From Candidatus Auribacterota bacterium (GTDB lineage: Bacteria; Auribacterota; UBA6266), in contig JAGLRQ010000116.1 in the NCBI GenBank assembly GCA_023136205.1, positions 1 to 18,118 on the forward strand: a stretch of DNA of 18,118 nt. Direction: 5' to 3'. The position numbers and the translations under genes were made by a program. The notes beneath the pieces are model-generated. The model worked only from the letters and a program-made list of their open reading frames with translations, was not told where the DNA came from and did not search any database. Shown in pieces: positions 1 through 16,464 of this stretch; position 1 is the stretch's first letter, and the number at the start of each line of letters is the position of its first letter.

Positions 1-927
1 AAAAGACTTTACGCGGAAATATCCCGATCTATAGGTTTTTACAGAATACAGTCCGGCGGGTCGGCGCTGGAACGCCTGATATTTTCAGGTGGAACAAGCC
101 AGCTTACCAACATCAGAGAATATTTTCTTAAAAAGCTCAATATCAGAACGGAAATGGTGGAACCTTTTAGCCAGCTGGAAATTGATCCTTATCTGGGCCT
201 TGAAGAACTGGCTTCTTTAAAGCACCTCTTCGCGGAAGCTATAGGGCTTGCGCTTAGAAAAGTTCACAAATGTGCCATCCATGTTAATTTGATCCCGAGA
301 AAAATAGCCCGGCAGAGAGAAATTAATAAACGCAAAGGATATATTATTTTATCTGCCATCATGATTTATGTAATGATGGCAACGGTGGCGATTTATTCAC
401 GCGGCATTGTAATAACAACAAACGCGAACATTAAACAGTACGATCTCCTGGTACGTGAGATGAACGGGTTCAAGCATGAAATAAATCAGAAAGAGAAGAA
501 TATTAAGGGATATAAAAATGAGCTGGATTTGTATGAAAAACTGATGGATGAGAGAGTCTACTGGCTGGATTTATTACTGACGCTTGAAAAAATTACCCCG
601 GAAAATATATGGATTTCCAAACTAATGCCGAAGAGCTCTTACAAAAGTTCCAAAACATTGGCGCCCTCTGTTTCGAGAAGGAGCGCAAGGGGCCGCAAAA
701 CAACAAAGAGTGTTGATTCTTTGGCGGAAGACGGGAAAGAGATCCTTCTTCTCGTCGCGAATACTACAGGTGTTTATGACGATGTTTATAAGTATTTCAA
801 AAAGTTAAAAGATTCAGGTTATTTTGTTGAGGATTCTGATACGAAAATTGACAAGGCAGAAAAACCTGTTCTGGGAATAAGAAAATTCTATTTCGAGCTT
901 AAGCTTAAAAAGGAAATTCCCAAATGA
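1..927 (+). CDS. Type IV pilus assembly protein: PilM C-terminal end fused in frame to PilN (5' partial, ORF open to the window edge)
   Basis: Frame 1 has no stop from nt 1 to the TGA at 925-927. The ATG at 154 in the ORF track is therefore an internal Met. nt 1-264 translate to KRLYAEISRSIGFY..LIFSGGTSQLTNIREYF..VEPF..AEAIGLALRKV, which matches the conserved C-terminal end of actin-like PilM (GGGA..L, NPF, A.GLALR). From about nt 277 the sequence reads HVNLIPRKIARQRE (the PilN INLLP motif). It is followed by a TM helix (GYIILSAIMIYVMMATVAIY), a coiled coil and an alpha/beta C-domain. Confidence 0.8.
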   Translation, partial: KRLYAEISRSIGFYRIQSGGSALERLIFSGGTSQLTNIREYFLKKLNIRTEMVEPFSQLEIDPYLGLEELASLKHLFAEAIGLALRKVHKCAIHVNLIPRKIARQREINKRKGYIILSAIMIYVMMATVAIYSRGIVITTNANIKQYDLLVREMNGFKHEINQKEKNIKGYKNELDLYEKLMDERVYWLDLLLTLEKITPENIWISKLMPKSSYKSSKTLAPSVSRRSARGRKTTKSVDSLAEDGKEILLLVANTTGVYDDVYKYFKKLKDSGYFVEDSDTKIDKAEKPVLGIRKFYFELKLKKEIPK

Positions 928-1682
928 TAGAGATTAAAAAAGATATTACTCTGTATATAACACTGGGGGTTTTAGCGGTTTTGCTGGTTGTTTTTGTGTT
1001 TATCCTGCGCGAGGCTTTATCCTCAAAATCCGACGCGGAGTCTGAACTTCAGCAGAAGATAGCAGAAAACAAAACCCTTTTTCGGGATGCCTCCGTGCCT
1101 TCCGTAATTACAGTTTCCGCGCTTAAGAAAGAGGAGAATCGTATCAGGGCTCAGAAAAACAGTATATATAACCTTCTTATTGACGCGGATACGAAAGAAG
1201 ATGAAGATATGGAGTATCCTTCGCCCGTAGAATTTAAGGATAAGCTGCTTTCCTATCAAACCAGGCTGGTTAACAGGGCCGATGCAAACGGCGTGAAGTT
1301 GCCCGGGACCCTTGGTTTTGAAGAATATGAAGGCGGAGACCTGCCCAGTATGAAGGATATCCCTCTTTTGATACGGCAAATGAAGATAATTGAAAAACTG
1401 GTAAATCTGTTTATCGATAGCCGTGTACAGCTTGTGGAAAAAATAGAGAGGGAGGAGACTAAAATATCCGAATGCAGGCACATTGATGGAATTTGCACGG
1501 TCTTGAACTTTAGCCTTGAAATGACTTGTCAAACGCCCGCACTTATAAAGTTTATGGGGGGGCTTGAATTTTTGAATAGCTTTATAATTATAAAAAATAT
1601 GGGAATAGAAGCGGATAAGATAAATAAAGTAAAAATGTTCATAAAAGCAGTAGACTTTAGAAAAGAAAATGAAAATTCCTAA
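924..1682 (+). CDS. pilO: PilO-like (GspM-like) bitopic inner-membrane pilus alignment protein
   Basis: The start shares an ATGA overlap with the upstream stop (924-927), and AAGGA lies 9 nt upstream. The protein has an N-terminal TM helix (ITLGVLAVLLVVFVFIL) and a coiled coil. Its C-terminal ferredoxin-like segment (FSLEMTCQTPALIKFMGGLEFLNSFIIIKNMGIE) fits the PilO pattern G.Y..l..Fl..L. The gene sits directly after PilN. Similarity is at the architecture and motif level only. Confidence 0.6.
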   Translation: MIEIKKDITLYITLGVLAVLLVVFVFILREALSSKSDAESELQQKIAENKTLFRDASVPSVITVSALKKEENRIRAQKNSIYNLLIDADTKEDEDMEYPSPVEFKDKLLSYQTRLVNRADANGVKLPGTLGFEEYEGGDLPSMKDIPLLIRQMKIIEKLVNLFIDSRVQLVEKIEREETKISECRHIDGICTVLNFSLEMTCQTPALIKFMGGLEFLNSFIIIKNMGIEADKINKVKMFIKAVDFRKENENS

Positions 1683-3276
1683 AATACCAAAGTTGAATTT
1701 TTCAGGGTTTGCGAAACCAAAGATTTTGGGGGGGATTGTAAAAAATCTTGAAAAGATTGTTTTTTTGATCCTTGAGGCTATATGGCTTGTTATGCTGGTA
1801 ACCTGCCTTATTAAACTTTACACGAATAATGTCAGGGCAAAACCTATTAGAGTAGCAGGAGGAGGTATTTTAAAGGAAGGGATAGAAGTAGATTTAAAGA
1901 AATATGAAGAAATTGAAAAAAGAATTAAGAAATTGAAAGAGGGACATGGAGGCTTGGACTTAAAAATCACGAAAGATATTTTTTGCAGGGAAGAAATAGA
2001 GATAGATCCCGTCATAGAGGAAATGGTAGTGGACAGTGACAAAGATGGTATGCCTGATGAATGGGAAAAGATGTATGGATTAAACTTAAGAAAAGCTTCC
2101 GATGCTGATGAGGATAAGGATGTTGACGGATACACAAACCTTGAAGAATTTGAAGCCGGAACGGATCCAACCAATCCTAACAGCAATCCCGGTGACATAG
2201 AATTTTTGTTAAGGAGATATACTCTGAAAGCTATTTCCAGGGAAACGGTGTCGCTTATTTTCATGGGATACACGCAGTGGAAACCCGAGTATCTTGATCT
2301 GCAGATAAACTGGCAGAACATGAGTTTTTTTCCAAGAATCTGGAGGGTAAGTGAAGATAATCCGGATATATATGAAGGTTTCCATATTACTGAAGAACGA
2401 TATAAGGAAGAGCTTGAAGGTAAAATAAGTGTTGGGAAACCAAGTATTAATTCCAGCAGTATTAATAAAATCCGGGCAATTCCTGAACTTGATCACAGCA
2501 TTGTTCAGGCTATAATAAATAGCAGGCAGAAAAGTATTGTAAAGCATATTTCAGATCTGTTAGAGTTTATTCAGTTGACTCCGGAGGAGCTGACGGTTGT
2601 TCATGATAAAGTTGCCGCGGAGGTTAATGTTAATAATTGTTCCGAGAATGAATTGGCCGAATTTTTTGGGATTTCCGCGAGTAACGCGAAAAAGGTAGTT
2701 GCGTATCGCGGGGAAAAAGGGTATTATAAAAACTTGAAAGAATTTCTGAGAGTTGCTGATGTTCCAACCTCACGACTTAAAGAGATTAAAGATATTCTTG
2801 TCGCAAAGCTTGATATTAATTCCGCGAACAGGAAAGATATAATTAAGTTCTTTGAAGATGAACGGTTAGCTGACGCGATATTGTTTTACAGGGAAGTGCA
2901 GGGACTTTTCAAAGATAAATATGATGTAGTTTCGCGTGGGAGGATTCAGGGATACTGGGTTATTTCATGTGAGGTCAAGATCAGGGAACTTCCGCCAAAA
3001 CCCGGGAGGCCCTATGGCCAAAAGATAAACGAGTCGGAAACGGTAATTCGGATGAGGGGCAGCGACCCTGTACTACTTCAATTTAAGAAAGTTACACAGG
3101 GCAAAGAACTTTTCGCGCGTGTTTACGATAAGACTTTAAATAAAGATGTTATGTGGAATGCCGGAACGGTAATTGGAAGCGATAAATCAAAATTTGAAAT
3201 TGTAGAAATAAACAAAAATGAAGTTGTCTTAAGCAAAAGAGGCGACAAATATCTGTTAAAATATAGCGGTAAATAA
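1669..3276 (+). CDS. Membrane-anchored PilP-position protein with a TSP3-like Ca-binding motif, three ComEA-like HhH modules and a PilP/GspC-HR-like C-terminal domain
   Basis: The gene overlaps the pilO-like gene by 14 nt. A TM helix lies at about aa 30-52. Residues 121-172 read DSDKDGMPDEWEKMYGLNLRKASDADEDKDVDGYTNLEEFEAGTDPTNPNS. Residues 259-422 hold three tandem units that resemble ComEA (IN.A...EL..LPGIG...A..II.YR...G.F.s.edL). The best one is VNVNNCSENELAEFFGISASNAKKVVAYRGEKGYYKNLKEFLRV. The C-terminus (GTVIGSDKSKFEIVEINKNEVVLSKRGDKYLLKY) resembles the PilP/GspC HR beta-domain consensus. Confidence 0.6.
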   Translation: MKIPKIPKLNFSGFAKPKILGGIVKNLEKIVFLILEAIWLVMLVTCLIKLYTNNVRAKPIRVAGGGILKEGIEVDLKKYEEIEKRIKKLKEGHGGLDLKITKDIFCREEIEIDPVIEEMVVDSDKDGMPDEWEKMYGLNLRKASDADEDKDVDGYTNLEEFEAGTDPTNPNSNPGDIEFLLRRYTLKAISRETVSLIFMGYTQWKPEYLDLQINWQNMSFFPRIWRVSEDNPDIYEGFHITEERYKEELEGKISVGKPSINSSSINKIRAIPELDHSIVQAIINSRQKSIVKHISDLLEFIQLTPEELTVVHDKVAAEVNVNNCSENELAEFFGISASNAKKVVAYRGEKGYYKNLKEFLRVADVPTSRLKEIKDILVAKLDINSANRKDIIKFFEDERLADAILFYREVQGLFKDKYDVVSRGRIQGYWVISCEVKIRELPPKPGRPYGQKINESETVIRMRGSDPVLLQFKKVTQGKELFARVYDKTLNKDVMWNAGTVIGSDKSKFEIVEINKNEVVLSKRGDKYLLKYSGK

Positions 3277-3293
3277 ATGAAAGGGGTAAAAGT

Positions 3294-5759
3294 ATGTGTG
3301 TTAAAAAAATCTTAAAAATTTGTGCGCTTTATATATCGGTTACTGTTTTTTGTTCACTGGCAACTTTTTCTCTCGCGGTAGATTCTGAGATAGAAACAGC
3401 GTTAAGACAGCAGGAGAGAAAAATTGCTGCCGAACACGTTGTGGAAGACGGTATAGCGTTTTACAAAGCAGGGGATTTTGCTGCTGCCCGGAAAGAGTTT
3501 CTGAAAGTTAAGGAACTTGATCCCGGCAATGAAGCCGCGGAAAAATATCTTGCTAAGATAGAAAATAAATTGCTTAAAGCCCGGAAAAAAATGCTGAAGG
3601 ATAAGGTTAGAGCCGGGGTTTCCAATTATAAAGCGAAGAATTATGAACAGGCTGCTGAACTTTTCATGGAAGTGCTTGAAATTGACCCCAACCATTCCAA
3701 AGCACAGAAATATCTAGCGAAATGTGATACAAAGCTGGGGATTTTAGAAAAGAATATTTCCTCCGAAAAATATTCGGGTGTTACAACAAGAGAGACAAAC
3801 GAACTTTATGAAAGAGGCAGGCTTCTTTACGATAACGCGCGGTATGATGAGGCAAGAGAGATATTTTCAGAGATTATCGCGTATAGCCCCAATCATGTTC
3901 CCGCTTCAAGATACATTGATTCCTGTAACGCGAGGTTACAGGAAATAGCTGATGAAGACCAGGAAGTCTTAAATAAAGAAGAGATGATAACTCTTAGAAA
4001 GTCCTGGTTTCCCCAAAAAGAATTTGAAAAGGAAGAGATTCCTGCTGACATTATTGACCTGCCGGATCTAACAATAACGGCGGCAAGGGAAAAAATAGAG
4101 AAGGAACTTGACCAGATAATACCTTTGATAGATTTTACAAACGCGCATTTGAGAGACCTTATAACCTCTCTTTCCGGTATGAGCGGTGTCAATATTATTC
4201 TTGATGAGAGTGTTTTTCCCGTCGTGGGAGCACCTGAAGACGCAGTTCTGGAAGGGGATATAACCGCAGAAGAACTGCTTGAAGACGCGGACGCGGCGGA
4301 ATTGGCTGAACTTGAAGCGCTTCTCTCTGAGGAAATCGGTGAAACGGACTCATCAGGCGTTATTGCTCCTTCCGTTGAATCCGGCGTCGGTGGAGAGGTG
4401 ATTGATGACACAATTACGATATCTTTGAGGAATATTCCCTTAAGAGAGGCTCTTAGATATATTGTTAAAGCAAAAGGGCTTAAATACAGGATTGATGATT
4501 ATGCTGTTGTAATATCCACCCCTGAAAACCTGATAGATGAAGAAATGGAAACAAGATATTACCATCTTAAAAGCGGTATAGGCGCTTTCACTGCCTTTAT
4601 AAGAAAAGATGCTGGGGGGGAAGCAGGGGCAACAACAGTATTGGGAGGAAATGTTTCGACTGAAACGATATCTATAAAAGATGTTCTTGAGCAGAGCGGT
4701 GTTCCCTGGCCGGAAGGGAGTAAGATATTCCTGCATGAAAGAACCAGTACCCTTATAGCCAGAAACAGCCCGACAAACCTCTCGATAATAGAAGATGTGT
4801 TAAGAGTTCTTGATGTAACAGCCCTTCAGATAGAGATACAGGCTAAATTTGTTGACCTTAATGAAACAGATGCTTCTGAACTCGGGCTTGAGTGGATGTT
4901 GACATCTGACTGGGGTATAAAAAGAGATAAAAGCGGCCGTGGTATTACAATGAATAAGGATTCATTGTTCCCAACCCTTATGCCGGATGGTGGTCCGGGT
5001 TTTGGACGATATCCTGGAGGTGCTTCAACCAGCTATGGTTTAACGCGGGGCCTGAGGTTTTTGGAGGATGGTACAACAGGTAATCCCATTGGAAATATTT
5101 TAAGTATTGGTGGAATTTTAACTGAACCTGAGTTTCAGGTTGTCCTGCACGCTCTTTCTCGAAGTCAGGCTGCTGACATTTTATCCTCTCCAAGAATTGT
5201 TACGCTGAATAACCAGGAAGCAACCATTCGCATTGTTGATGAACTGATTTATCCAACTGAATATGAAATAACACCTCCGACGTGGAGGGTTGACCCTGAT
5301 GACGGAACTATAACGATGGTGAGTTACGCGGCGGTGGCACCCGGTGGTTTTGAGACAAGGGAAATTGGGGTAATTCTTAAGGTAATTCCCAATGTCGGTG
5401 CTGACAATAAAACAATTAATCTTGCAATAATCCCTGAAGTTAGTGAATTAAGTTCCTGGATAACGGATTATGATATTATATATGATTTGCAGAGAATAGC
5501 GTTACCCCAGCCTTTTATTTCAACAAGGCTGGTTACAACCAATGTTATAATAAATGATGGTGAAACGATTGTTCTCGGAGGGCTCATGAATGAGACAGCA
5601 ATAGAAAAGGATGATAAGATTCCTATACTGGGAGATATTCCGTTTTTGGGAAGGCTGTTTAGAACCGAATCCGAAAGCAATGAAAAGAGGAATCTTATGA
5701 TATTTGTGACGGCAAATCTTCTTACACCTACAGGTGAAGCCTTTGCAATCGGAGAATAA
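3294..5759 (+). CDS. pilQ: Outer-membrane secretin (PilQ/GspD family) with an N-terminal TPR region, paralogue 1
   Basis: AAGGGG lies 7 nt upstream of the ATG. The signal peptide ends at ..FSLA/VDSE. There are three TPR-like units, each ending in DP.N..A..YL.K. An N0/STN-like domain follows (IDFTNAHLRDLITSLSGMSGVNIILDE ... ITISLRNIPLREALRYIVKAKGLKYRIDDYAVVIS). The classic secretin C-domain is present (LSSPRIVTLNNQEATIRIV, GVILKVIPNV, INDGETIVLGGL, KIPILGDIPFLGRLFR, LMIFVTANLL). Confidence 0.9.
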   Translation: MCVKKILKICALYISVTVFCSLATFSLAVDSEIETALRQQERKIAAEHVVEDGIAFYKAGDFAAARKEFLKVKELDPGNEAAEKYLAKIENKLLKARKKMLKDKVRAGVSNYKAKNYEQAAELFMEVLEIDPNHSKAQKYLAKCDTKLGILEKNISSEKYSGVTTRETNELYERGRLLYDNARYDEAREIFSEIIAYSPNHVPASRYIDSCNARLQEIADEDQEVLNKEEMITLRKSWFPQKEFEKEEIPADIIDLPDLTITAAREKIEKELDQIIPLIDFTNAHLRDLITSLSGMSGVNIILDESVFPVVGAPEDAVLEGDITAEELLEDADAAELAELEALLSEEIGETDSSGVIAPSVESGVGGEVIDDTITISLRNIPLREALRYIVKAKGLKYRIDDYAVVISTPENLIDEEMETRYYHLKSGIGAFTAFIRKDAGGEAGATTVLGGNVSTETISIKDVLEQSGVPWPEGSKIFLHERTSTLIARNSPTNLSIIEDVLRVLDVTALQIEIQAKFVDLNETDASELGLEWMLTSDWGIKRDKSGRGITMNKDSLFPTLMPDGGPGFGRYPGGASTSYGLTRGLRFLEDGTTGNPIGNILSIGGILTEPEFQVVLHALSRSQAADILSSPRIVTLNNQEATIRIVDELIYPTEYEITPPTWRVDPDDGTITMVSYAAVAPGGFETREIGVILKVIPNVGADNKTINLAIIPEVSELSSWITDYDIIYDLQRIALPQPFISTRLVTTNVIINDGETIVLGGLMNETAIEKDDKIPILGDIPFLGRLFRTESESNEKRNLMIFVTANLLTPTGEAFAIGE

Positions 5760-5788
5760 ATTTTTTGAAGAAAGGGAGAAATAAAGTT

Positions 5789-8143
5789 ATGAGAAGGATA
5801 ACAGCAGGGAATATAAAAACCGCGTTAATAATCATGGGTACACTGTTTTTCTTTTGTGTTTCTGTACCGTTGTCCGCTCAGGTTGACAGCGGGTCAAAAC
5901 AGAATGCTGAAAAATTCGCGAAAGAGTATGCGAAACAGGTTGAGATTGAGCGCCAGGTAAATAAAATCGAGGTGCGAAGGCATATTGGTACGGCGGAAGA
6001 ATATGTGTCCAGGGGTATGTTTGTTGAGGCTAAAATTGAATATGAGAAAGTCCTTGAAATTGACCCGGATAACAAAACAGCCGGAAGCCGGATTTTGACC
6101 CTGAAAAAGAAAATAGTGAAAGCCAGAGCAAAAGAGCTGAATGCGAAGGTTCGTGGAGGGATTAACGCGTATAACGAGGCCAGGTATGCCGCGTCTGTTG
6201 AGATGTTTCAGGATGTGCTGAATGAAGACCCTAGAAATAAGAAAGCTATGAAATATCTCGCGAAGGCCAAAGCAGCCCTTTTCGCTGAAGGCAGTTCGGT
6301 AAGTGTAGTAAAGGAAGTAATTGTGGAAAACGGAAGCCTGGTTCTGGACAACATTGGGAAAGCTAAACAGCTTTATACAGAAGGGGTTCTTTATTATAAG
6401 AATGGAAGGTATCCCGAGGCTGTTCCGTTTTTTAAGAAAGCCCTGGAGCTGAATCCCGATCATGCCCAGGCACGCAGGTATCTTGAGCGGTCACTTGCCG
6501 GTGAGCGAGAAAATACTGATGATGTATGGGATGACACAAAGGATGCTTATATTGAACAGGTTGATAAACACTGGCTTACGGAAAAAAGGAAACTTATCAA
6601 AGAAGAACCTGATAAGGATGTTTTTGAATCAGCTCCGAAAAAGGACTCCGCGGCCAAATTAAACATAGAGAAAAATCTCCGGCAGGTTATTCCTTCCATT
6701 AAACTTAAAGATGCTAATCTGAAATACGTGGTAAAACACCTTTCAGGTTTAAGCGGGATTAATATTCTTCTTGACCCCGCGGCAAGGGAAATAGAAAACC
6801 AGAACATAACAATATCGCTTACCGATATTCCCCTGCTCGAAGCTATAAAATATATTGTCCGCGCGAAGGGGCTGGTGTATAGAATTGACGATTATGCTGT
6901 AGTTATTACAACAAGCGAAAGGCTTTTTGACGAAGAAATGGAAACGAGATATTACCAGCTTGCCTCAGGTGTAACAAGCGGTTCTGTTTTTAGCACAAGC
7001 TTCGCGGAAACCGCGGGTGAAACAACGACTATTGGAACGGCTGCGGCTTTTGAATCTACCACGACAATTCAGGATGTTCTTGAAGAATCAGGTGTTCCTT
7101 TTCCTGAAGGAAGCAAGATATTTCTTGATAAAAGAACCGGTATACTTATAGTAAGAAACACCCCTTCAAATCTTAGTATTATTGAAGAAGTCCTACAGAA
7201 ATTAGATGTGGTTCCTTACCAGATTGAGATTGAAGCCAGATTTGTTGAATTAACTGAAACGACTTATAAAGAGCTCGGAATTGAGTGGATGTTAACCAAC
7301 CAGTTGTCAATAGGCAATGATTATGCTCTAAACCCCCTTCCATGGATTGATTCTACCGGAAAAGCAGGGGATGGACAGTACGGGGATACTTGGGGTAGAG
7401 AAGGAATAACCCATGGTGTAAGATTTCTGGAAGATACCGTAGGCGAACCTCGGGGAAATATAATGAGATTGTCAGCAGTACTGGGATCATTAGAATTTTC
7501 GGCAATTTTACATGCTCTTGCTCAGAAGGGGGATTCAAATGTGCTCTCAGCCCCAAAGGTTACCACTGTAAACAACAGCCAGGCGCAGATTAAAATTGTA
7601 AGTGAATTGATATATCCTACAGAGTTTGAGATTACACCTCCTTCGACAAATGAATGGGGAAGCATTGTTACGCCTGCTGTTGTTATTCCGGGCACATTTG
7701 AAACCAGGGAAGTTGGAATTTTACTCAGTGTTGTTCCTACTGTGGGGGCTGATAAGAAAACTATAACACTTGCGATTATTCCTGAAGTCAGCAGTTTGAC
7801 CTCTTGGATAAACTATGGAACTGATCGTTTGCCTGCCAGACAGCCGCAGTTTGAAACACGAAACCTGAGCACAAGTGTTGTGATAAATGACGGGGACACG
7901 GTTGTAATGGGCGGCCTTATAAAGGAAACTACAACAAACACTGAGGATAAGATTCCTATATTAGGAGATATCCCTTTTATAGGAAGGTTGTTTAGGAATG
8001 ATTCAAATGAATCCGTGAAGAAAAACCTTGTTATTTTTGTTACTGCTAAACTTGTTACGCCTCGCGGTGACCTTCTGAAGGAATTTATGGCAGGCGGCTC
8101 CGGTACCGGTATTGAGTCGAAATCTCTGATTAGTATTGATTAA
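5789..8143 (+). CDS. pilQ: Outer-membrane secretin (PilQ/GspD family) with an N-terminal TPR region, paralogue 2
   Basis: The architecture matches paralogue 1. It has a signal peptide (..VPLSA/QVDS), three TPR-like units and an N0/STN-like domain (IKLKDANLKYVVKHLSGLSGINILLD ... ITISLTDIPLLEAIKYIVRAKGLVYRIDDYAVVIT). The secretin domain is also present (LSAPKVTTVNNSQAQIKIV, GILLSVVPTV, INDGDTVVMGGL, KIPILGDIPFIGRLFR, LVIFVTAKLV). I prefer the ATG at 5789, with GGGAG at 5774-5778, over the TTG at 5765 in the ORF track. Confidence 0.9.
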   Translation: MRRITAGNIKTALIIMGTLFFFCVSVPLSAQVDSGSKQNAEKFAKEYAKQVEIERQVNKIEVRRHIGTAEEYVSRGMFVEAKIEYEKVLEIDPDNKTAGSRILTLKKKIVKARAKELNAKVRGGINAYNEARYAASVEMFQDVLNEDPRNKKAMKYLAKAKAALFAEGSSVSVVKEVIVENGSLVLDNIGKAKQLYTEGVLYYKNGRYPEAVPFFKKALELNPDHAQARRYLERSLAGERENTDDVWDDTKDAYIEQVDKHWLTEKRKLIKEEPDKDVFESAPKKDSAAKLNIEKNLRQVIPSIKLKDANLKYVVKHLSGLSGINILLDPAAREIENQNITISLTDIPLLEAIKYIVRAKGLVYRIDDYAVVITTSERLFDEEMETRYYQLASGVTSGSVFSTSFAETAGETTTIGTAAAFESTTTIQDVLEESGVPFPEGSKIFLDKRTGILIVRNTPSNLSIIEEVLQKLDVVPYQIEIEARFVELTETTYKELGIEWMLTNQLSIGNDYALNPLPWIDSTGKAGDGQYGDTWGREGITHGVRFLEDTVGEPRGNIMRLSAVLGSLEFSAILHALAQKGDSNVLSAPKVTTVNNSQAQIKIVSELIYPTEFEITPPSTNEWGSIVTPAVVIPGTFETREVGILLSVVPTVGADKKTITLAIIPEVSSLTSWINYGTDRLPARQPQFETRNLSTSVVINDGDTVVMGGLIKETTTNTEDKIPILGDIPFIGRLFRNDSNESVKKNLVIFVTAKLVTPRGDLLKEFMAGGSGTGIESKSLISID

Positions 8144-8150
8144 GAAATAG

Positions 8151-8190
8151 TTAGCTTAAATCTTATGGTATTTAGCTGATGATTTATGGT
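8151..8190. repeat. 19-nt imperfect direct repeat with 21-nt period upstream of polA
   Basis: The two copies are TTAGCTtaaatcTTATGGT (8151-8169) and TTAGCTgatgatTTATGGT (8172-8190). A tandem TAACTCA TAACTCA follows at 8208-8221, immediately before the polA ATG. Confidence 0.5.
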
Positions 8191-8225
8191 CCATTTCTTG
8201 TAGCCCGTAACTCATAACTCATTCC

Positions 8226-10862
8226 ATGTCGAAAAAAACCTTTTTAATGATTGATGGTATGTCATTTGTTTACAGGGCGTACTATGCCATCAGGCAGTTA
8301 ACAACTTCTTCGGGATTTCCTACCAACGCTATTTTTGGTTTTATAAACATGCTTGAAAAACTTATTAACGATTATAGCCCTGATTATATGGCGGCGGCAT
8401 TTGATACGAAAGAACCTACTTTCAGGCATGAGAAATACAAGGATTATAAATCACAGAGAAAGCCTATTCCTGAAGATTTGATACCGCAGTTAGGCCCGAT
8501 TAAAGATATTATAAGAGCTTTTAATATACAGCTTTTTGAATGTCCCGGTTACGAAGCTGATGATATTTTAGCAACGCTTGCCGCCAAAACCGGCGCCGGA
8601 GCTATTAAGTCTATTATCGCCACCGGTGATAAGGATATGTTTCAGATTATTGACGGAGAGAATATATTTGTTCTTTCCCCCGGGGGAGGGGGTAAGGAAA
8701 ATATTCTGTACGATCCTGAGAGGGTAGAACAGAAATTTGGGGTAAAACCTGACAAAATTGTTGATATGCTCGCGCTTGCGGGGGATTCCGCGGATAACAT
8801 TTCAGGGGTTCCCGGCATAGGTTTAAAAACGGCTAAAGCACTTTTGGATGAGTTTGGTTCACTTGAAAATATATTATCTGAAACTGACAAAATTAAAAGC
8901 CCGGCCCGCAGGCACGCTATAAAGGAACATGCCGATAAAGCAAGATTTTACAGGGAACTGGTTACGGTAAATACACGGGCTCCTGTTGATTTTAGAATAG
9001 AAGAATGTATGCGCAAAACTCCTGATTTAAATAAATTGCTCGAACTTTTTAGAAAGTTTGAGTTCACAAAACTTGCATACAAGTACAGCGCGAAAGAACA
9101 AATTTCTGAAGACGCTGTAATTATTAATAATATAAAGGAAGCAGAAAAGTTCTTTAAAAAACTTGAAGGCTCGGAAAGACTTTATTTCAAAACGATTTTT
9201 GATAGTGGAGAACCTTTTGGTGATGTGAATATTGTCGGCATTGCCGCGATGGTTGATGGGGTAAAACCCGCTTTTATTTCTACGGAAGGTATTGGATTAA
9301 AGGAATTAATTCGTTTGATAGGCCCGGTTTTGCGGGATCCTGAGATTAAGAAAGCGGGATATGGACTGAAAAATGAAATAGTTAATTTTAAAAAGCTTGG
9401 AATAGATATCGAAGGCATAGAATTTGATGCTGAAATTGCCGCTTATATATTAAATCCTTCAAGAAAAGATTATTCTCCTGAATCAATTATATCTCTTTAT
9501 TCAAATATGATTATACTCCCGGTAGAGAGAAAGAAGGAAGAGCGGGATTTATGGCTTAAACAGGCTGCTTCAAATCTCTGCGGGTGTGTAAAAGCCCTTC
9601 CCGGAGTATGCAAGAGCCTTTTGGCGGAAATTAAGGAAAAAGCGGTGGTTAAACTTTTTAAGGAAGTGGAAATGGGCCTTTTATATGTACTGGCGGAAAT
9701 GGAGTGTGAAGGAGTAAAAATAGATGTAAAAACATTGACCAGGCTTTCCGGTGAATTTCACCGCGGGATTAGTAAAATTGAAGAGGAAGTTTATAATATA
9801 GCAGGGGAAAAGTTTAACCTGAATTCTTCAAAGCAGCTGGGAAAGATTTTGTTCGAAAAACTGAAACTTCCCGTTATTAAGAAAACTAAAACGGGATATT
9901 CTACGGATGATGAGGTTTTAGAAGTTTTGAAAAACAAACATCTTCTTGCCGGACTTATAAAAAACTACAGGACGCTTTCCAAACTAATTTCCACATATGT
10001 GGACTCCATGCCGTTGTTAATTTCTAAAAAGACGGGCAGGCTTCATACAACATTTAATCAGACTGTAACTTCTACGGGACGCCTTAGTTCAAGTAATCCA
10101 AACCTCCAGAATATCCCCATAAAAACCGAAGAAGGAAGGAAAGTGAGGGAAGCTTTTGTTCCAAGGGAGGGCTGGTTTTTGATTTCTGCGGATTATTCAC
10201 AGATAGAACTCAGGATTCTTGCCCACCTTTCAAAGGATGCCGGACTTGTCCGGGCATTTAAACAAGGAGAGGATATTCATACTTTTACGGCTGCCCTTAT
10301 AAACGGCATTGAACTTGAAAATGTAACAGAAGAAATGAGAAATGCCGCAAAAGCCGTTAATTTCGGCATTATTTACGGGATCAGTTCCTTTGGACTCGCG
10401 AAAAACACAGGTGTAGATAAAAAAACGGCAGGGGAGTTTATTAAGAGTTATTTTGAGAGGTATCCCGGAGTAAAAGTATTTATTGACGGGCTTATAAAGG
10501 AAGCCAGAGAAAAAGGATATGTGAGCACCATATTTAACAGGAGAAGGTACATAAATGAGTTTAAGTCCTCAAATGCTGTGGAAAGAAATTTTGCCCAAAG
10601 GGCAGCGGTGAATACTGCAATCCAGGGTTCAGCGGCAGATATTATTAAGATTGCAATGCTTAAGGTAAATGAAAAACTTAAAGAAGAGTCTTTTCAGGCG
10701 AGGATGATTTTGCAGGTTCATGATGAGCTGCTGCTTGAGGTACCTCCGCTGGAACTTAATCTTTTGGAAGAACAAATCCGCGGCATTATGGAAAATGTTG
10801 TTGCTCTGGATGTTCCTTTGAAGGTAAAGGTAAATAGTGGTAAAAGCTGGGCGGAAATTTAG
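8226..10862 (+). CDS. polA: DNA polymerase I
   Basis: 5' nuclease motifs are intact (IDGMSFVYRAYYA, GYEADDILATLA, TGDKDMFQI, GDSADNISGVPGIGLKTA). Polymerase motif A (DYSQIELRILAH), motif B (RNAAKAVNFGIIYG) and motif C (QVHDELLLE) are present. The central 3'-5' exonuclease-like domain has degenerate catalytic motifs. Confidence 0.97.
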   Translation: MSKKTFLMIDGMSFVYRAYYAIRQLTTSSGFPTNAIFGFINMLEKLINDYSPDYMAAAFDTKEPTFRHEKYKDYKSQRKPIPEDLIPQLGPIKDIIRAFNIQLFECPGYEADDILATLAAKTGAGAIKSIIATGDKDMFQIIDGENIFVLSPGGGGKENILYDPERVEQKFGVKPDKIVDMLALAGDSADNISGVPGIGLKTAKALLDEFGSLENILSETDKIKSPARRHAIKEHADKARFYRELVTVNTRAPVDFRIEECMRKTPDLNKLLELFRKFEFTKLAYKYSAKEQISEDAVIINNIKEAEKFFKKLEGSERLYFKTIFDSGEPFGDVNIVGIAAMVDGVKPAFISTEGIGLKELIRLIGPVLRDPEIKKAGYGLKNEIVNFKKLGIDIEGIEFDAEIAAYILNPSRKDYSPESIISLYSNMIILPVERKKEERDLWLKQAASNLCGCVKALPGVCKSLLAEIKEKAVVKLFKEVEMGLLYVLAEMECEGVKIDVKTLTRLSGEFHRGISKIEEEVYNIAGEKFNLNSSKQLGKILFEKLKLPVIKKTKTGYSTDDEVLEVLKNKHLLAGLIKNYRTLSKLISTYVDSMPLLISKKTGRLHTTFNQTVTSTGRLSSSNPNLQNIPIKTEEGRKVREAFVPREGWFLISADYSQIELRILAHLSKDAGLVRAFKQGEDIHTFTAALINGIELENVTEEMRNAAKAVNFGIIYGISSFGLAKNTGVDKKTAGEFIKSYFERYPGVKVFIDGLIKEAREKGYVSTIFNRRRYINEFKSSNAVERNFAQRAAVNTAIQGSAADIIKIAMLKVNEKLKEESFQARMILQVHDELLLEVPPLELNLLEEQIRGIMENVVALDVPLKVKVNSGKSWAEI

Positions 10863-10879
10863 AAAAACAAAAAAAGAAA

Positions 10880-10983
10880 TTAACCACAAATAACACGAAT
10901 TTTCACAAATTAAAAAAAATACTAGATTATTTATTCGTGCAGATTTCCCTCCAGAATGGGACAGGTGTGTGATTAGTGGTTAA
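10880..10983. repeat. 17-nt imperfect inverted repeat (15/17) bracketing ~70 nt in the polA-downstream spacer
   Basis: TTAACCACAAATAACAC (10880-10896) is complementary to GTGTGATTAGTGGTTAA (10967-10983), with mismatches at 2 positions. An inner inverted repeat pairs CACGAAT (10894-10900) with ATTCGTG (10933-10939). CACAAAT occurs as a direct repeat at 10885 and 10904. Confidence 0.5.
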
Positions 10984-11060
10984 AAAATTAGATACTGGAA
11001 TTTAGATCATTAGAATTCGTTTCGGATTTCGTGCTTCGAATTTAGTATTTTTAACTTCAG

Positions 11061-13103
11061 GTGACCGATATTAAAACAATTAAAACAAACAAAATTATCA
11101 TTAGCGCGATTACAGTCATTGCTCTTCTTTCCATCTATTGCGGGAGTGTCTGGTTGAGGCTGGAGATAAGGAAGCATCACGAAGAGCAGTATGGAAGAGA
11201 ACTGCCGTTTACGCTTGAAAGCGCGTTGCTTTTTAAATATGCTTCAATGCTTTCAAAAGGCGAAGCCATACCTGATATTGATAAGAGCGCTCAGTATCCT
11301 GAAGGGCTGAAGGTAAAGGAAAGGCTTTCAATAGGCGGCGAAATTTTACCCGCGTTTATTTACAGGGTTGTAAAACCGGCTATTTCATTTCAAGGATTTA
11401 TGAGGATTTTTTTCCCCTTGTTTTATTCAATTGGCATATTTGGTATTTATCTGTCGGCGAAAGAACTTTCGGGCACAAAAATCGGGGGGCTTATTGCTGC
11501 CGCGATATACGCCTTTTCGGCCGCTTCAGTTGTACGTTCAACAGGCCTGGAGTTTTCCAGGGAAAACTTCGCGCTGCCGTTTATCTGTTTTCATCTGGCT
11601 TTTGTTTCGATATATGTACGCCGCCGCTCTGTTTTTGCTGTAGTAGGATCCGCGCTGACCCTGGGAGCGGCACAGTGTGTATGGGATCTTACCCAGATAT
11701 ATATTGTTTTTATGGCTGTTATTATCATCGGGTATTTTTTGATTAATGGGAGCATCGGTAAGTACAGGGCGATACTTTTTTACAATACTCTTGCCCTGGT
11801 ATTTGCCGGGCTGGTTTCTCCATATTTAAGATGGCATTCTTTCTTAAGTTCATATATTATGGGGTCCCTCTATGTAACCTTAATTCTGTCGATTTTTCAG
11901 CCCCGAATAAAATTTCTTGCAAAAAAATATTATCTTGCTATAATATGGATAAGTTTGTACGTTATCTCCTGTTTTATATCTTATTATGGCTCAGAATACG
12001 GCGATGTTTATTCAAATTTTATATCCCTGCTTTTTGGAAAATTAAGATACTTTAATAAAATACCGCTTGATTCATCGAAATTAAACTGGGATGTTCGGGT
12101 GTTATGGACACCTGCTCTTGATTCGGTTAGCTTAAAGTCCTTTTTAAATTATTTTCATGCTCTGCTAATTGTCTTTTTTCTCGGTTTTGCGGGAATGTTA
12201 TTAAGTAGAATCAGAAGCCGCAATCCTTCTCTTTATCTGATGGTTCCGATGGTTTTGTTCTTCTGCTTCTTGTGTTTCTTTTTTAGAAGGATGTTTGTGT
12301 TCTTTGTAATACCCTTTTCTGTTGTCGCGGGGTTTGTTCCTCTGATATTCAGAAAAAATCGGTTTTTCAGGGCTCTGATTATAGTGGTTGTGTTTTTCTT
12401 TATATTTTTTGAGGGAGAAAGGTGTTATGCCCGGAGGAACCTGTGGCGCCGTGATGTAAGGTATCTGGAGCTGGAAGATATTTCGATCTGGGCAAGAGAA
12501 TCAACGCCTGAAGGCTCAGTTGTCCTGGCAAACTTTACTCTTTCTCCTGTAATTAATTATTATGCCGGAAGGAGTATTGTTATACATCCTAAATTTGAGG
12601 ATCCCGCGCTGCGGGAAAAAGTATTTGAATACGGCAGGGCTATCTTCAGCGTGGAGGAAAGTGATTTTATTGATTTCTGTGATAAATACGGGGTTAACTA
12701 TTTTATTTTTTCAAGAGGGACTTACTCGACGGTTTCTCCGTATTCAATGAGATATATATGGAATGTAAAAAGCGAGGTGCCCTCCAGCGCGGCGGCAAAA
12801 TTTAAAAGATACGGAGATGCCCCATACAGGTTTATTCCCCTTTACTACAATGGAAAATACAGGGCATACTACTTTGTTTCCGCGGGGGAAATGGGACTTA
12901 TTAATGAGTATATGGCCGAGTCTGACAGGCTGTTTCGAGAAGGTGATAAGGCTTCTGCCGTAAAGATGCTGGAAAAGGTTTTGAAGATTTATCCGCTTTA
13001 TAAAGAAGCCTGTTTCCGGTTGGGCAAATTGTATATGGAAGATGGCAGGGTTAGAGAAGGGCTTAACCTGCTCAAAAACGCGAAAGAAATGTTGTTTGAA
13101 TGA
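11061..13103 (+). CDS. Polytopic GT-C fold membrane protein, STT3/PglB/AglB-like oligosaccharyltransferase homologue with WWDYG replaced and a C-terminal TPR
   Basis: The GTG at 11061 is the first start after an in-frame TAA (11052-11054), and no clear SD is present. There are more than 10 hydrophobic helices. Loop motifs resemble STT3: LPFTLESALLFKYA (EL1 acidic motif) and VRSTGLEFSRENFALPF (compare RSVAGSYDNEGIAIF). The soluble C-domain aligns by eye with eukaryotic STT3: WARESTPEGSVVLA-NFTLS-PVINYYAGRSIVI versus WLR.[28 protein letters not shown]. A second stretch, GRAIFSVEESDFIDFCDKYGVNYFIF, aligns with [25 protein letters not shown]. The last ~70 aa are TPR-like. Confidence 0.55.
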   Translation: MTDIKTIKTNKIIISAITVIALLSIYCGSVWLRLEIRKHHEEQYGRELPFTLESALLFKYASMLSKGEAIPDIDKSAQYPEGLKVKERLSIGGEILPAFIYRVVKPAISFQGFMRIFFPLFYSIGIFGIYLSAKELSGTKIGGLIAAAIYAFSAASVVRSTGLEFSRENFALPFICFHLAFVSIYVRRRSVFAVVGSALTLGAAQCVWDLTQIYIVFMAVIIIGYFLINGSIGKYRAILFYNTLALVFAGLVSPYLRWHSFLSSYIMGSLYVTLILSIFQPRIKFLAKKYYLAIIWISLYVISCFISYYGSEYGDVYSNFISLLFGKLRYFNKIPLDSSKLNWDVRVLWTPALDSVSLKSFLNYFHALLIVFFLGFAGMLLSRIRSRNPSLYLMVPMVLFFCFLCFFFRRMFVFFVIPFSVVAGFVPLIFRKNRFFRALIIVVVFFFIFFEGERCYARRNLWRRDVRYLELEDISIWARESTPEGSVVLANFTLSPVINYYAGRSIVIHPKFEDPALREKVFEYGRAIFSVEESDFIDFCDKYGVNYFIFSRGTYSTVSPYSMRYIWNVKSEVPSSAAAKFKRYGDAPYRFIPLYYNGKYRAYYFVSAGEMGLINEYMAESDRLFREGDKASAVKMLEKVLKIYPLYKEACFRLGKLYMEDGRVREGLNLLKNAKEMLFE

Positions 13104-13678
13104 AAATCGCAATAACCGGCGGAATATGTTCGGGGAAAAGCACTGTTCGCGCCATTCTTGAAAAGCGCGGTATTGAAATTATTGATGCCGATGACCTTGC
13201 GAGAGAATCCGCGGAATTGAGTAAGGAGAGAATATTACAGCATTTTGGCCCTGGATATTTTGATGTAAAGGGGAAATTAAACCGGGCAAAACTTGCGGAG
13301 AAAATTTTTAGTTCTCCTGAAGAAAAAAAAGCTCTGGAAAGAATATTGCATCCTGTAATAATTTCTCTCATAAAACAGGGAATGGAATGTTTTGAAAAAG
13401 ACGAAAAAAAATATATAGTAATAGCTCCGCTGATTTTTGAAACGGATATTGGCGAATTATTTGATTATGTCATTTTGCTTTCATGCGGGCAGCAGCAGCA
13501 GATAAAAAGGCTTACGGAAAGAGAGCAAATAGCGAAAGAGAAGGCTTTTGAGAGGATAAGAGTTCAGTTTTCTGACGAGGAAAAGGGTAAAAAGGCTGAC
13601 TTTATAATAGATACTTCCTGCAGTATTAGTGAAACAGAAGAAGTAATAATAAAACTTTTAGAAAAAATAGGTTTTTAA
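13100..13678 (+). CDS. coaE: Dephospho-CoA kinase
   Basis: The start shares an ATGA overlap with the upstream stop (13100-13103). The N-terminus MKIAITGGICSGKSTV carries the P-loop. The protein is 192 aa, and LHP and DFIIDTS-type motifs typical of CoaE are present. Confidence 0.9.
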   Translation: MKIAITGGICSGKSTVRAILEKRGIEIIDADDLARESAELSKERILQHFGPGYFDVKGKLNRAKLAEKIFSSPEEKKALERILHPVIISLIKQGMECFEKDEKKYIVIAPLIFETDIGELFDYVILLSCGQQQQIKRLTEREQIAKEKAFERIRVQFSDEEKGKKADFIIDTSCSISETEEVIIKLLEKIGF

Positions 13679-13689
13679 GGAGGAATTAA

Positions 13690-15075
13690 ATGGCAAAAAC
13701 GAGAACGAGTGAAGTACAAAAAGAAGTTAAAAACGCGAACTCTGTAAAACCGCCTGTTGTAAGAGACGCAAAAATTGTTGACACAGGAACTAAAAATGAA
13801 GGGATTGCCGCGGTAATAGATGCGGATGTAAATATCGTGACTCTCCAAAAAATGACTGTTGCCCGGTTAAATGCTATTGCGAAACATTTGAAAATAGCGG
13901 CAACGGGGACGTTGAAAAAACCCCAGCTTATATTTGAGATATTAAAAGCAAAAGCGCGGGCCAACGGCCTTATGTTTGGTGAAGGTATCCTGGAAATTCT
14001 CCCGGACAGTTTCGGGTTTTTACGGTCTCCGAACTATAATTACCTTCCCTGTCCCGAAGATATATATGTTTCTCCTTCACAGATAAGAAGGTTCGATTTA
14101 CAGACCGGGGCCATGGTTTCAGGCCAGATACGGCCTCCAAAAGATAAGGAGAAATATTTTGCCCTTCTCAAGGTCGAAGCGGTCAATCATGAAGATCCGG
14201 ATAAAGCAAAGGACAAAATCCTTTTTGATAATCTTACGCCTTTGTATCCTCAGGAGAGATTTCTGATTGAAACCGAGCCGGACAGTATATCTATGAGAGT
14301 GATGGATCTATTGACGCCTATAGGCAAGGGCCAGAGAGGCCTTATTGTAGCACCTCCCAGGACCGGAAAGACAATGCTGCTTCAGGCTATCGCGAACGGT
14401 ATAACAAAGAATACCCCGGATGCGAAGCTTATAGTGATGCTTATAGATGAAAGGCCTGAAGAGGTGACGGATATGGAGAGGACTGTAAATGGGGAAGTTA
14501 TAAGTTCAACGTTTGATGAGCCGCCTGAAAGGCATATTCAGATAGCTGAAATTGTTATAGAAAAGGCCAAGAGGATGGTTGAGCATAAGGAGGATGTAGT
14601 CATTCTCCTGGATAGTCTTACCAGGCTGGCGCGCGCGTATAACACGGTTCAGCCTCACAGCGGAAGAATTCTTTCGGGCGGGCTTGATTCTACTGCTCTT
14701 CATAAACCCAAGAGATTTTTTGGCGCGGCGAGAAACATAGAAGAGGGAGGAAGCCTTACTATTATTGCTACAGCTCTTGTTGATACAGGGAGCAAGATGG
14801 ATGAGGTTATATTTGAAGAGTTTAAGGGAACCGGAAACATGGAACTTCATTTGGACAGAAGACTGGTTGATAAGAGGGTGTTTCCTGCTATAGACATTGA
14901 AAAATCCGGGACAAGGAAAGAGGAGCTTCTTTTTCACGCGGATGAGCTGAAGCGCATATGGCTCTTGAGAAAAGCCCTGCATGGAATGAATCCTGTTGAA
15001 TGCATGGAGCTTATAATAAACAAAATCAAAAAGACGAAGAGCAACGCGGAATTCCTGATGTCGATAAACGGCTGA
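13690..15075 (+). CDS. rho: Transcription termination factor Rho
   Basis: A strong SD (AAGGAGG, 13677-13683) lies 6 nt upstream. Similarity to E. coli Rho is near-collinear: [59 protein letters not shown] (Walker A), [54 protein letters not shown]. About 45-48 extra residues precede the Rho_N domain. Confidence 0.97.
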
Positions 15076-15084
15076 TATTCCCGG

Positions 15085-15115
15085 TTGCATAAATTCTTGA
15101 CAGATAGAGTATAAT
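15085..15115 (+). promoter_or_regulatory. Candidate sigma70-type promoter for rpmE-prfA (TTGCAT-N19-TATAAT)
   Basis: A perfect TATAAT sits at 15110-15115 in the 105-nt rho-rpmE spacer. The only -35-like hexamer at usable spacing is TTGCAT (15085-15090), and its 19-nt spacer is longer than optimal. The perfect TTGACA at 15097-15102 is only 7 nt from the -10 and so is not a partner. Confidence 0.25.
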
Positions 15116-15180
15116 TACATTTTGAATTTATTAGTGGGATTTTTGTGAGATAATTTAATTAGCAGAGAGGAAAATATACA

Positions 15181-15393
15181 ATGAAAGATAAAATCCATCC
15201 AAAATACGCGGAATCTACTGTTACCTGTGCTTGTGGAGAGGTAATCCATACCCGTTCCACAAAGCCGGAGATTCATGTGGGCATTTGTTCAAAATGCCAT
15301 CCGTTTTTTACAGGTAAACAGAAGCTCGTGGACTCAGCGGGCCGTATAGAGAAGTTTATGAGGAAGTACGGCAAAAAGAAGGCCGGAGAGTAA
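15181..15393 (+). CDS. rpmE: 50S ribosomal protein L31, Zn-ribbon (Cys-containing) type
   Basis: The sequence [37 protein letters not shown] is nearly identical in pattern to E. coli L31, and all four Zn-ligand Cys are retained. A GAGAGGA SD lies about 9 nt upstream. Confidence 0.95.
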
Positions 15394-15396
15394 TCC

Positions 15397-16464
15397 GTGC
15401 TTAAGAATCTTAGTTTTTTTAAGCAAAAGCTTTCTGAGCTTGAGAAAAGTCTTGCTGACAATATTACGATCTTAAATCCTGAGAAATATAGGGAAACAGC
15501 AAAAGAACACGGCCGTATTTCTCAGATAGTTTCTATTGGGACAAAACTTGAAAAAGTTGTATCTGATTTGGATTCTGCGCGCAATATACTCAATTCCCAA
15601 ACCGAAGACGAGGAGCTTGTTTCTATAGCAAAGGAAGAAATTGCTGATCTTGAAGAGCAGAAAGCTCTTATTGAAAAGGAATACAAGATTCTCCTGATTC
15701 CCTCCGATAAAAATGACAGCAGGAATACAATAATTGAAGTGCGTGCCGGTACGGGCGGTGAGGAAGCATCGCTTTTCGCCGCTGATATAGCACGAATGTA
15801 TATCCGTTATGCTGAGCGGGTCGGATGGAAGGTTGAAATATTGAATTCGAATGAAACGGAGAAACACGGATTTAAAGAGATTATTTTTTCTCTGGAAGGG
15901 GAGAATGTTTACAAAAGAATAAAGTATGAGAGCGGTGTTCACAGGGTTCAGCGTGTTCCGGAAACAGAAGCAAGCGGCAGAATCCATACATCAGCAGTAA
16001 CGGTTGCTGTAATGCCCGAAGCTGAGGATATAGATGTGCAAATAAAACCTGAAGATTTGAGGATTGATACTTACCGGGCATCAGGCGCGGGCGGACAGCA
16101 CGTAAATAAAACCGATTCCGCTGTGAGGATAACACATATTCCGACGAATACGATAGTTGCCTGCCAGGACAATAAATCGCAGCATAAAAATAAAGCACAG
16201 GCGATGAAAGTTCTCAAGGCAAGAATTTATGAGAAAATTCAACAGGATGAAAATCGAAAACGTTCTACTCAAAGAAAAACAATGATTGGAACAGGAGATA
16301 GAAGCGCAAAGATTAGAACGTATAATTTCCCCCAGTCAAGAGTTACTGACCACAGGATTGGGCTCTCGCTTCACAATCTTGATGAAATAATGAACGGTAA
16401 TTTAGGGCCTTTACTGGATGCTCTTATTGAAAAAGACCATGAAGAGAAACTCAGGCTTCTGTAA
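15397..16464 (+). CDS. prfA: Peptide chain release factor 1
   Basis: The GTG start lies 3 nt after the rpmE stop, with GGAGAG 6 nt upstream. The P-x-T anticodon-mimic motif ([14 protein letters not shown]) and the GGQ motif ([22 protein letters not shown]) are present. There is no RF2-type SPF motif and no frameshift site. Confidence 0.97.

Follow-up and report, generated by a model that had tools for sequence, protein, structure and literature searches.

Does a pilus machine that has two secretin genes build its outer membrane channel from both products in a single ring, or does it keep the two proteins in separate rings? The question is raised by an 18,118-nucleotide (nt) stretch of DNA from a Candidatus Auribacterota bacterium (GenBank assembly GCA_023136205.1, contig JAGLRQ010000116.1, positions 1 to 18,118; the whole stretch is referred to as the window), in which two full-length secretin genes lie head to tail on the + strand. 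Gene A (3294..5759) encodes a protein of 821 amino acids (aa; MCK4948099.1) and gene B (5789..8143) one of 784 aa (MCK4948100.1). The locus is the outer membrane end of a type IV pilus-like machine of the Planctomycetes-Verrucomicrobia-Chlamydiae (PVC) type, like that of the Akkermansia Amuc_1102-1101-1100-1099-1098 genes. To our knowledge, every secretin studied so far is a ring made from a single gene's product, and cells would seem to guard against rings of mixed composition. Comparison of the locus with its relatives indicates that tandem pairs such as A and B evolved repeatedly, and that one member of the pair has repeatedly lost an acidic insert from its N0 domain. The identity of the parts and their evolutionary history can be stated with high confidence; a ring shared by A and B is proposed tentatively.

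Two secretins from an old duplication

A and B are secretins with N0 and N1-type ring domains and a beta-barrel domain. The Secretin family PF00263 (Pfam cutoff 27.5 bits) matches A with 133.2 bits and B with 143.5 bits. The barrel domain occupies 4827..5726 in A, where it contains a variable low-confidence loop (aa 537-611), and 7220..8056 in B. It is preceded by an N1/N3-type ring domain (4653..4811 in A, Secretin_N 19.6 bits; 7067..7204 in B, Secretin_N 24.3 bits) and by the N0 domain (4080..4583 in A, STN-like, Pfam STN 26 bits; 6650..6958 in B). The STN and Secretin_N scores, 19.6-26 bits in the two proteins, are just under the Pfam cutoffs. Both domain types are seen in AlphaFold2 models, which were built on a 57-sequence alignment and have a mean predicted local distance difference test score (pLDDT) of 72-73. 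The two models share one plan: they begin with an N-terminal stretch of helices (pLDDT above 90), run through 20-25 aa of disordered linker and continue with beta-alpha N0 and N1 domains and a beta-rich secretin domain. Foldseek matches them to BfpB, the Vibrio cholerae competence PilQ, GspD and InvG (E 1e-20 to 1e-23). For example, the barrel of A matches 6w6m, 9u5s and GspD, the best match of the B barrel is the V. cholerae competence PilQ (6w6m), and the N0 domain of B matches the N0-N1 structures 6rwk and 4e9j; the crystal structures matched by the B model include MxiD N0N1 and XcpQ N012. A PDB sequence search agrees with these secretin assignments. Outer membrane rings of 12-15 subunits that resist SDS are a mark of the secretin superfamily, and A and B would be expected to assemble into gated multimeric beta-barrel pores.

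The best NCBIfam match of both proteins is NF042912, the "Amuc_1098 family type IV pilus outer membrane protein". The match covers A in a single stretch that includes the N-terminal repeat region (aa 36-817 on profile positions 31-803 of 805) and B in three stretches. Because the scores, 327.8 bits for A and 347.9 bits for B, are far under the equivalog cutoff of 750, A and B are regarded as distant Amuc_1098 homologues from another phylum and not as equivalogs. Both also score below the cutoffs of TIGR02515, the type IVa PilQ model (162.4 and 190.5 bits; cutoff 284.35), and of TIGR02517, the GspD model (192.2 and 205.8 bits; cutoff 351.35). The neighboring genes match the Amuc_1101, Amuc_1100 and Amuc_1099 families of NCBIfam.

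Each protein begins with a set of tetratricopeptide repeat (TPR)-like units. A hidden Markov model (HMM) made from the six A and B copies finds a unit of 48 aa, made up of one TPR and a capping helix, three times in each: at aa 46-93, 101-148 and 168-215 of A (3429..3938; 72-81 bits each) and at aa 62-109, 117-164 and 192-238 of B (5972..6502; 70-75 bits). The Pfam models of the 34-residue helix-turn-helix repeat, TPR_1 (PF00515, cutoff 27.8 bits; 37.5 in A, 50.1 in B) and TPR_2 (PF07719, cutoff 27 bits; 54.9 in A, 54.6 in B) agree. A first-pass annotation of this DNA had described an N-terminal TPR array in place of AMIN domains. The repeats are genuine and stand at the AMIN place, and AMIN itself (PF11741) has no Pfam match in A or B; the units are not a contiguous array, being separate in the AlphaFold2 models and joined by long helices with no contiguous TPR superhelix. 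That the fusion of TPRs to a secretin is novel did not hold. The fusion is real but already known, because the Amuc_1098 (Akkermansia PilQ) architecture was published in 2016 and is a family-wide trait; the unit HMM finds one to three copies in nearly all of about 70 homologues.

The rest of the annotated architecture stands. The common order of signal peptide, three TPR-like units, N0, N1 and secretin domain is recovered by Pfam, AlphaFold2 and the unit HMM, and every identical block that had been listed is present in the BLASTP alignment of A with B (40% identity over the full length, E 1e-174). Inspection by hand likewise agrees that the signal peptides of A (3294..3377, FSLA/VD) and B (5789..5878, PLSA/QV) are of the signal peptidase I type; no lipobox ([LVI][ASTVI][GAS]C) occurs in A, B or 19 relatives (21 family members), and the signal-peptide cysteine is not conserved in the orthologues from two related loci, L002 and L009. 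Export through Sec and cleavage by signal peptidase I are probable for both proteins. Only 10 aa of A and 27 aa of B extend beyond the barrel, the longer C-terminal tail of B (8057..8140) being 25-27 aa in the B clade against 10-11 aa in the A clade.

The two reading frames are intact and, as first described, 29 nt apart. The second frame could start at TTG 5765 or ATG 5789; ATG 5789 is the likely start because GGGAG lies 10 nt upstream and the public calls give 784 aa. This GGGAG (5774-5778) is in the spacer (5760..5788), which has no terminator, and a Shine-Dalgarno-like AAGGGG (3281..3286) stands ahead of A; each secretin gene has its own ribosome-binding site. From the 29-nt spacer without a terminator, A and B are predicted to be co-transcribed.

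An old duplication with both copies maintained, as the first-pass annotation proposed, is confirmed by several measures. Comparison of A with B finds their synonymous sites saturated (pS 0.73) and no shared exact word longer than about 15 nt. Recent gene conversion was considered and rejected, the best 60-nt window being 80% identical and third-position identity 37%. Nucleotide identity is patchy, with one correction to the example given earlier: positions 4540-4569 match 6933-6962 (27 of 30) and not 6940-6969 (10 of 30). Orthologues of both genes are intact, adjacent and similarly flanked in L001 (88% identity), L002 (67%) and L009/L010, and both copies are intact in four genomes (the window, L001, L002 and L009). 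Set against L001, A of the window has a ratio of nonsynonymous to synonymous substitution (dN/dS) of 0.16 and B one of 0.20, with dS about 0.35, and the values for individual domains range from 0.10 to 0.24 in both proteins. All 46 invariant columns of the 57-sequence alignment, which includes A and B, are kept by both copies. Faster or relaxed evolution after duplication was also rejected. With separate training and test clades, departures amount to 15-21% in A and 14-27% in B compared with 10-22% in single-copy clades, and because the A and B values fall within or close to the single-copy range they do not point clearly to acceleration; an earlier tally, of 18-22 departures versus a median of 4, was discarded as circular. 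Where A and B differ in a lineage-fixed way from residues conserved elsewhere, the sites cluster in N0. Judged by these comparisons, A and B are both working secretin subunits that stem from an old duplication and are held by purifying selection.

Recurrent pairs and the N0 insert

Tandem pairs and single genes both occur among the Auribacterota. Two secretin genes are found in L005 (C2) and L011 (C1), in L012 and L013 (clade I) and in L017 and L018 (clade D), and a single one, with polA/Dpy19/coaE/rho synteny, in L003, L006 (Ca. Ancaeobacter aquaticus), L007, L008 and L014. In neighbor-joining trees, made for the secretins on the N0, N1 and secretin core, the two copies group as sisters within each lineage, with bootstrap values of 92% for A+B, 97% for C1+C2, 96% for I1+I2 and 100% for D1+D2; the single-copy L006 protein falls outside D1+D2 at 92%. 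A single ancient duplication with positional orthologues across the Auribacterota (B with C1, I2 and D1) was rejected, its bootstrap being 0% in every test. Pair-bearing and single-copy genomes are interspersed on the Rho and CoaE tree. By these phylogenies, at least four Auribacterota lineages came by their tandem pairs independently.

A metagenome scan found about 19 further tandem pairs among more distant relatives. In 14 loci, which include a Victivallaceae genome (L004) and human-gut contigs, the pairs go back to one ancient duplication, with the two copies, V1 and V2, reciprocally monophyletic at 95% and 96%. The same paired arrangement is present in the human-gut metagenome contigs L035 and L046. 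Nothing relevant came from literature searches on Amuc_1097 or on secretins that occur in tandem, as two genes or as hetero-oligomers; the paired-secretin pattern is new in the sense that it was not found described in the searchable literature, whereas the TPR fusion was already known.

The pairs are asymmetric in the N0 domain. Most family members have a 30-88-aa insert in N0, often very acidic and of low model confidence. In A the insert is 68 aa long (aa 305-372, 4206..4409), contains 21 aspartates or glutamates (D/E) and has low pLDDT; at the same site B has 9 aa (PAAREIENQ, 6776-6802). A helix is predicted at aa 325-347 of the A insert. Four of the five well-resolved duplications pair an insert-bearing copy with one from which the insert has been lost: 64-68 aa in A and 9-10 aa in B, 59-61 aa in I1 and 17-19 aa in I2, 35-43 aa in D2 and 13-19 aa in D1, and 33-74 aa (up to 34 D/E) in V2 and 7-10 aa in V1. 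An insert of 74 aa with 34 D/E occurs in some relatives, as in the second gene of L060. The insert-bearing gene can be first or second, the order differing between lineages. The five verified Auribacterota singles all have an insert of at least 32 aa.

Two short-insert proteins that had been predicted not to stand alone (P0053 and P0058) both sit in tandem pairs. The general rule, that a short-insert copy never stands alone, held in the Auribacterota and the V group and was rejected on account of L022 and L023, where it fails. In L021 and L028, also of another clade, the short-insert secretin adjoins a second tandem gene (L021:2823-4286, L028:4200-5789) that encodes a short secretin (488-530 aa) entirely without the TPR region, a pair of another sort. 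N0 contacts the inner membrane platform in PilQ and GspD. Because an acidic loop has been lost repeatedly from one copy of a domain with this contact, the recurrent pairing of insert-bearing and insert-less proteins suggests a division of labor at the level of N0, that is, at the interface with the platform.

Two other variants were observed. Just upstream of the single-copy secretin, L019 (3662-4213) and L030 (3911-4513) have a 184-201-aa open reading frame (ORF) that matches the N0 part of the family profile alone (85-106 bits) and looks like a stand-alone N0-like protein. In L008 (5946-7737), three small genes, two of them for OMP_b-brl outer membrane barrels, lie between the Amuc_1099-like gene and the single secretin.

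One ring or two channels

How might the two proteins be used together? A and B would be made side by side from one operon, would carry the same targeting and docking modules, and would join in one mixed ring or, if not, share a single inner membrane platform as their docking site. In a mixed ring, the acidic loop would be carried by the A-type N0 domains only. Co-assembly is proposed because of the common operon and the shared modules. Indirect points in its favor are the closeness or overlap of the genes in pairs of independent origin (29 nt apart here, 2 nt in L009, a 1-nt overlap in L013 and an 11-nt overlap in L005), the single set of platform genes and the recurring N0 asymmetry. In the genome from which the window comes, one PilMN, one Amuc_1100 and one Amuc_1099 gene accompany both secretins, which bears out the earlier observation of one alignment complex with two secretins. 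In the literature, secretins that are related are seen as liable to end up in mixed multimers unless their targeting differs (PMC3230066). On this genomic evidence, a mixed A/B ring is slightly favored over separate channels, as a tentative preference. A broader proposal is that the PVC-type pilus machine works with an obligate two-paralogue secretin, in which insert-bearing and insert-less subunits share one ring and a subset of the N0 domains engages the platform through the acidic loop. It would be the first hetero-oligomeric secretin, evolved at least four times in the Auribacterota and once anciently in the Victivallaceae-containing group, and is offered as a possibility held with some reserve.

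Several points weigh against a mixed ring and its repeated origin. We know of no hetero-oligomeric secretin in any characterized system, and none was found in the searchable literature. A and B show no complementary degeneration, each copy looking fully competent alone, and one secretin gene suffices in five Auribacterota relatives. The N0 asymmetry has exceptions: both inserts of the C pair are 32-40 aa, both are long in L032, and both are short in L049. In another clade, L022 and L023 each have a lone short-insert secretin. The trees are neighbor-joining trees throughout, the A+B sisterhood falls to 35% in a 75-taxon set and to 71% in a 68-taxon set, and lineage-wise concerted evolution is an alternative to repeated duplication.

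Two separate homo-oligomeric channels would accommodate several of these points. The A and B rings would then differ in substrate, in state or in partner (pilus extrusion for one and DNA or another cargo for the other, say), or would dock on different inner membrane components. As far as is known, every characterized secretin is homo-oligomeric; both copies keep the family-invariant residues under normal constraint without complementary degeneration, and the fixed differences cluster in N0, the platform-contacting domain. Also on this side, the adjacent Amuc_1099-like gene gained a ComEA-type DNA-binding helix-hairpin-helix (HhH) module in the A/B clade. The module (about 2430-2960 in the window, roughly 180 aa) has an HHH_3 match of 68 bits at aa 317-375, two weak flanking copies, and a PDB match to ComEA (8dfk, E 1.3e-4). 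In addition, the region 1.5-4 kb upstream of the cluster contains dprA and a comM-like gene of the Mg-chelatase family, both in the window's own genome (L015:1402-3793; L015 is a stretch of a 538-kb scaffold reaching upstream of the window) and in L001 (836-3227), and the best structural match of B is a competence-pilus PilQ. A DNA-uptake role for the A/B-clade machine is plausible from these gene contents. However, among the loci examined the HhH module is confined to the Amuc_1099-like genes of the two-secretin A/B clade (L001, L002, L009/L010), at least four further lineages have pairs without it, and in L002 the dprA/comM linkage is missing. DNA uptake was rejected as a general reason for two secretins, given that the module is lacking with the C, I, D and V pairs, and the division into fiber exit and DNA entry that had been suggested for the pair fails as a general explanation. 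Nor is there an obvious means of keeping A and B apart, since they have the same operon, signal-peptide type and TPR module, with no pilotin within 10 kb. Separate channels are a possible, somewhat doubtful, account of the pair.

It is very improbable that one copy is redundant, a spare or a gene drifting to loss with no distinct role. Five related Auribacterota loci do run on a single secretin gene. The first-pass annotation had named routine single copies in close relatives as a sign against distinct functions, and this is half the case: both copies persist in the nearest relatives (88% and 67% identity), and the five other loci have one. Redundancy is opposed by the intactness of both copies, with dN/dS of 0.16-0.20, in genomes whose PolA proteins are just 54% identical, by the saturation of synonymous sites between A and B, and by the retention of the paired arrangement in 14 loci of another group.

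A distinct role was also proposed for the N-terminal TPR module, as a built-in pilotin that replaces the PilF/PilW/Tgl lipoprotein. The units are genuine and under purifying selection (dN/dS about 0.22), no pilotin-like gene is present within 10 kb of the secretin cluster in the window's own genome, and Ottman et al. noted in 2016 that the TPR region of the Akkermansia PilQ resembles BAM and pilotin proteins (PMC4960237). Self-piloting is nonetheless unlikely, and the suggestion of the first-pass annotation found no support. The 21 secretin family members have no lipobox, the lipidation signal expected of pilotins and liposecretins, and the similarity to pilotins is generic TPR similarity alone: the PilW model TIGR02521 scores 24.7 and 22.8 bits (cutoff 154), the BamD model scores 23.9 bits (cutoff 81.4), and the TPR-region matches listed among the top 50 from Foldseek are to consensus TPRs and Hop/FKBP52, with no pilotin among those. 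The units are set apart by long helices in the AlphaFold2 models and form no six-TPR groove, and their number varies from one to three among relatives. Pilotins of the T2SS (type II secretion system) bind the C-terminal S-domain of the secretin, and the TPR module is N-terminal to N0, at the far end from that domain. Because of this opposite position, the module is most likely a periplasmic strut or docking arm where other PilQs have AMIN domains, and probably not a pilotin.

The gene cluster and known systems

All large ORFs of the window are on the + strand, in the order PilM-PilN fusion (3' part), Amuc_1100-like, Amuc_1099-like, secretin A, secretin B, polA, Dpy19-family, coaE, rho, prfA and prmC. 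The PilM-PilN fusion gene (Amuc_1101 family, NCBIfam NF045709, E 3.8e-25) is cut at the window start (1..927); the complete protein in L001 and L015 is 578 aa long with PilM_2 and FtsA domains. It is followed by a PilO-like protein of the Amuc_1100 family (924..1682; NCBIfam NF038287, E 1.1e-16; PF28028 on the same gene in L015) and by the Amuc_1099-family membrane-anchored periplasmic protein (1669..3276; NF042425, 46.9 bits), which has a TSP3 repeat and the inserted ComEA-type HhH module at aa 255-430. The C-terminal 95 aa of this protein (2989-3273) are conserved across loci, and a secretin-docking role for them would be a guess. Their assignment as a PilP/GspC HR or GspB-like docking domain was tried and rejected, the T2SSB match being weak (15.6 bits) and a 10-sequence profile finding nothing in the PDB. 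No PilP gene was recognized at the locus. On the 538-kb scaffold of its own genome, the cluster is complete and reads Amuc_1102-like, PilMN (578 aa), Amuc_1100-like, Amuc_1099-like, A, B; L015 and L016 have PF28178, PilM_2, PF28028 and the Amuc_1099-like gene, and then the secretins. The dprA and comM-like genes upstream of the cluster adjoin an IS200-type Y1 transposase.

Farther downstream, the Dpy19-family gene (11061-13103; PF10034, 98.8 bits) encodes a polytopic membrane protein with C-terminal TPRs. In eukaryotes, the Dpy19 family is a C-mannosyltransferase family. Most of the Auribacterota loci examined have the gene in synteny with the secretin cluster; L003, L005, L011 and L014 lack it. 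Over the window (1-18118) the GC skew is positive throughout, and the AT skew is negative solely over the Dpy19-like gene (11-13 kb).

In an exact look-up at NCBI, the public names of MCK4948099.1 and MCK4948100.1, from a Candidatus Aureabacteria/Auribacterota metagenome-assembled genome, are just "tetratricopeptide repeat protein". Because automated annotation gives the two secretins no other name, the outer membrane channel of this machine stays hidden, and counts of pilus and secretion machinery in these phyla are probably too low. A secretin of two paralogues that evolved recurrently would be noteworthy because no hetero-oligomeric secretin is known to us, and the case for it is one of comparative genomics. 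The recurrent pairs, with the same N0 asymmetry, are a natural test case for the existence of mixed rings, and could show how the symmetry of a secretin ring is matched to the inner membrane platform.

Several known systems share features with this locus. The type IVa and competence PilQ secretins (V. cholerae 6w6m, Pseudomonas aeruginosa 6ve2, Myxococcus xanthus 3jc8) have the same secretin, N1 and N0 folds, are the best PDB matches by sequence and fold, and, as here, are accompanied by a PilM/N/O-like platform. Many of them have AMIN domains, in whose stead A and B have TPR units. Known PilQ rings are homo-oligomers of one gene product. GspD of the T2SS has N0-N1-N2-N3 domains and a C-terminal S-domain. 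The pilotins PilF/PilW/Tgl and TadD have TPRs in common with the N-terminus of A and B; unlike the pilotin site, the TPR module of A and B is at the protein end distant from the outer membrane. The self-piloting liposecretins HxcQ and BfpB carry their own N-terminal lipidated cysteine, whereas A and B are without a lipid anchor signal.

Duplication of a core component with retention of adjacent copies has a parallel in the paralogue pairs that work in one type IV filament assembly, such as the TadB/TadC platform, PilN/PilO and PilB/PilT. Unlike the established TadB/TadC-type pairs, A and B are only presumed to act in one assembly. Duplication and retention is a recognized route of innovation in the type IV filament superfamily (PMC6668835); the duplications listed there concern pilins, ATPases and platform proteins, and not the secretin (PMC6668835).

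The closest likeness is to Akkermansia muciniphila. Its PilQ, Amuc_1098, is a 907-aa outer membrane secretin (Ottman et al. 2016; PMC4960237), with the domain order of A and B: signal peptide, three TPRs, N0/N1 and secretin. The three N-terminal TPRs, at 71-239, were described as "resembling the pilotin proteins", and the region was likened to BAM and pilotin proteins (PMC4960237). Amuc_1098 is conserved in other Verrucomicrobia and in Lentisphaera (PMC4960237). The gene order is also that of the locus described here: Amuc_1102, the PilM-like Amuc_1101, Amuc_1100, Amuc_1099 and then the secretin (PMC4960237, PMC10688800). Two differences stand out. The literature descriptions give Akkermansia one PilQ, whereas two tandem paralogues are present here, and the Amuc_1099-like gene here has a ComEA-type HhH module, unlike that of the Akkermansia cluster. 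The family in which paired secretins have recurred includes the Amuc_1098-1102 cluster, and host effects of the proteins of that cluster are a subject of study.

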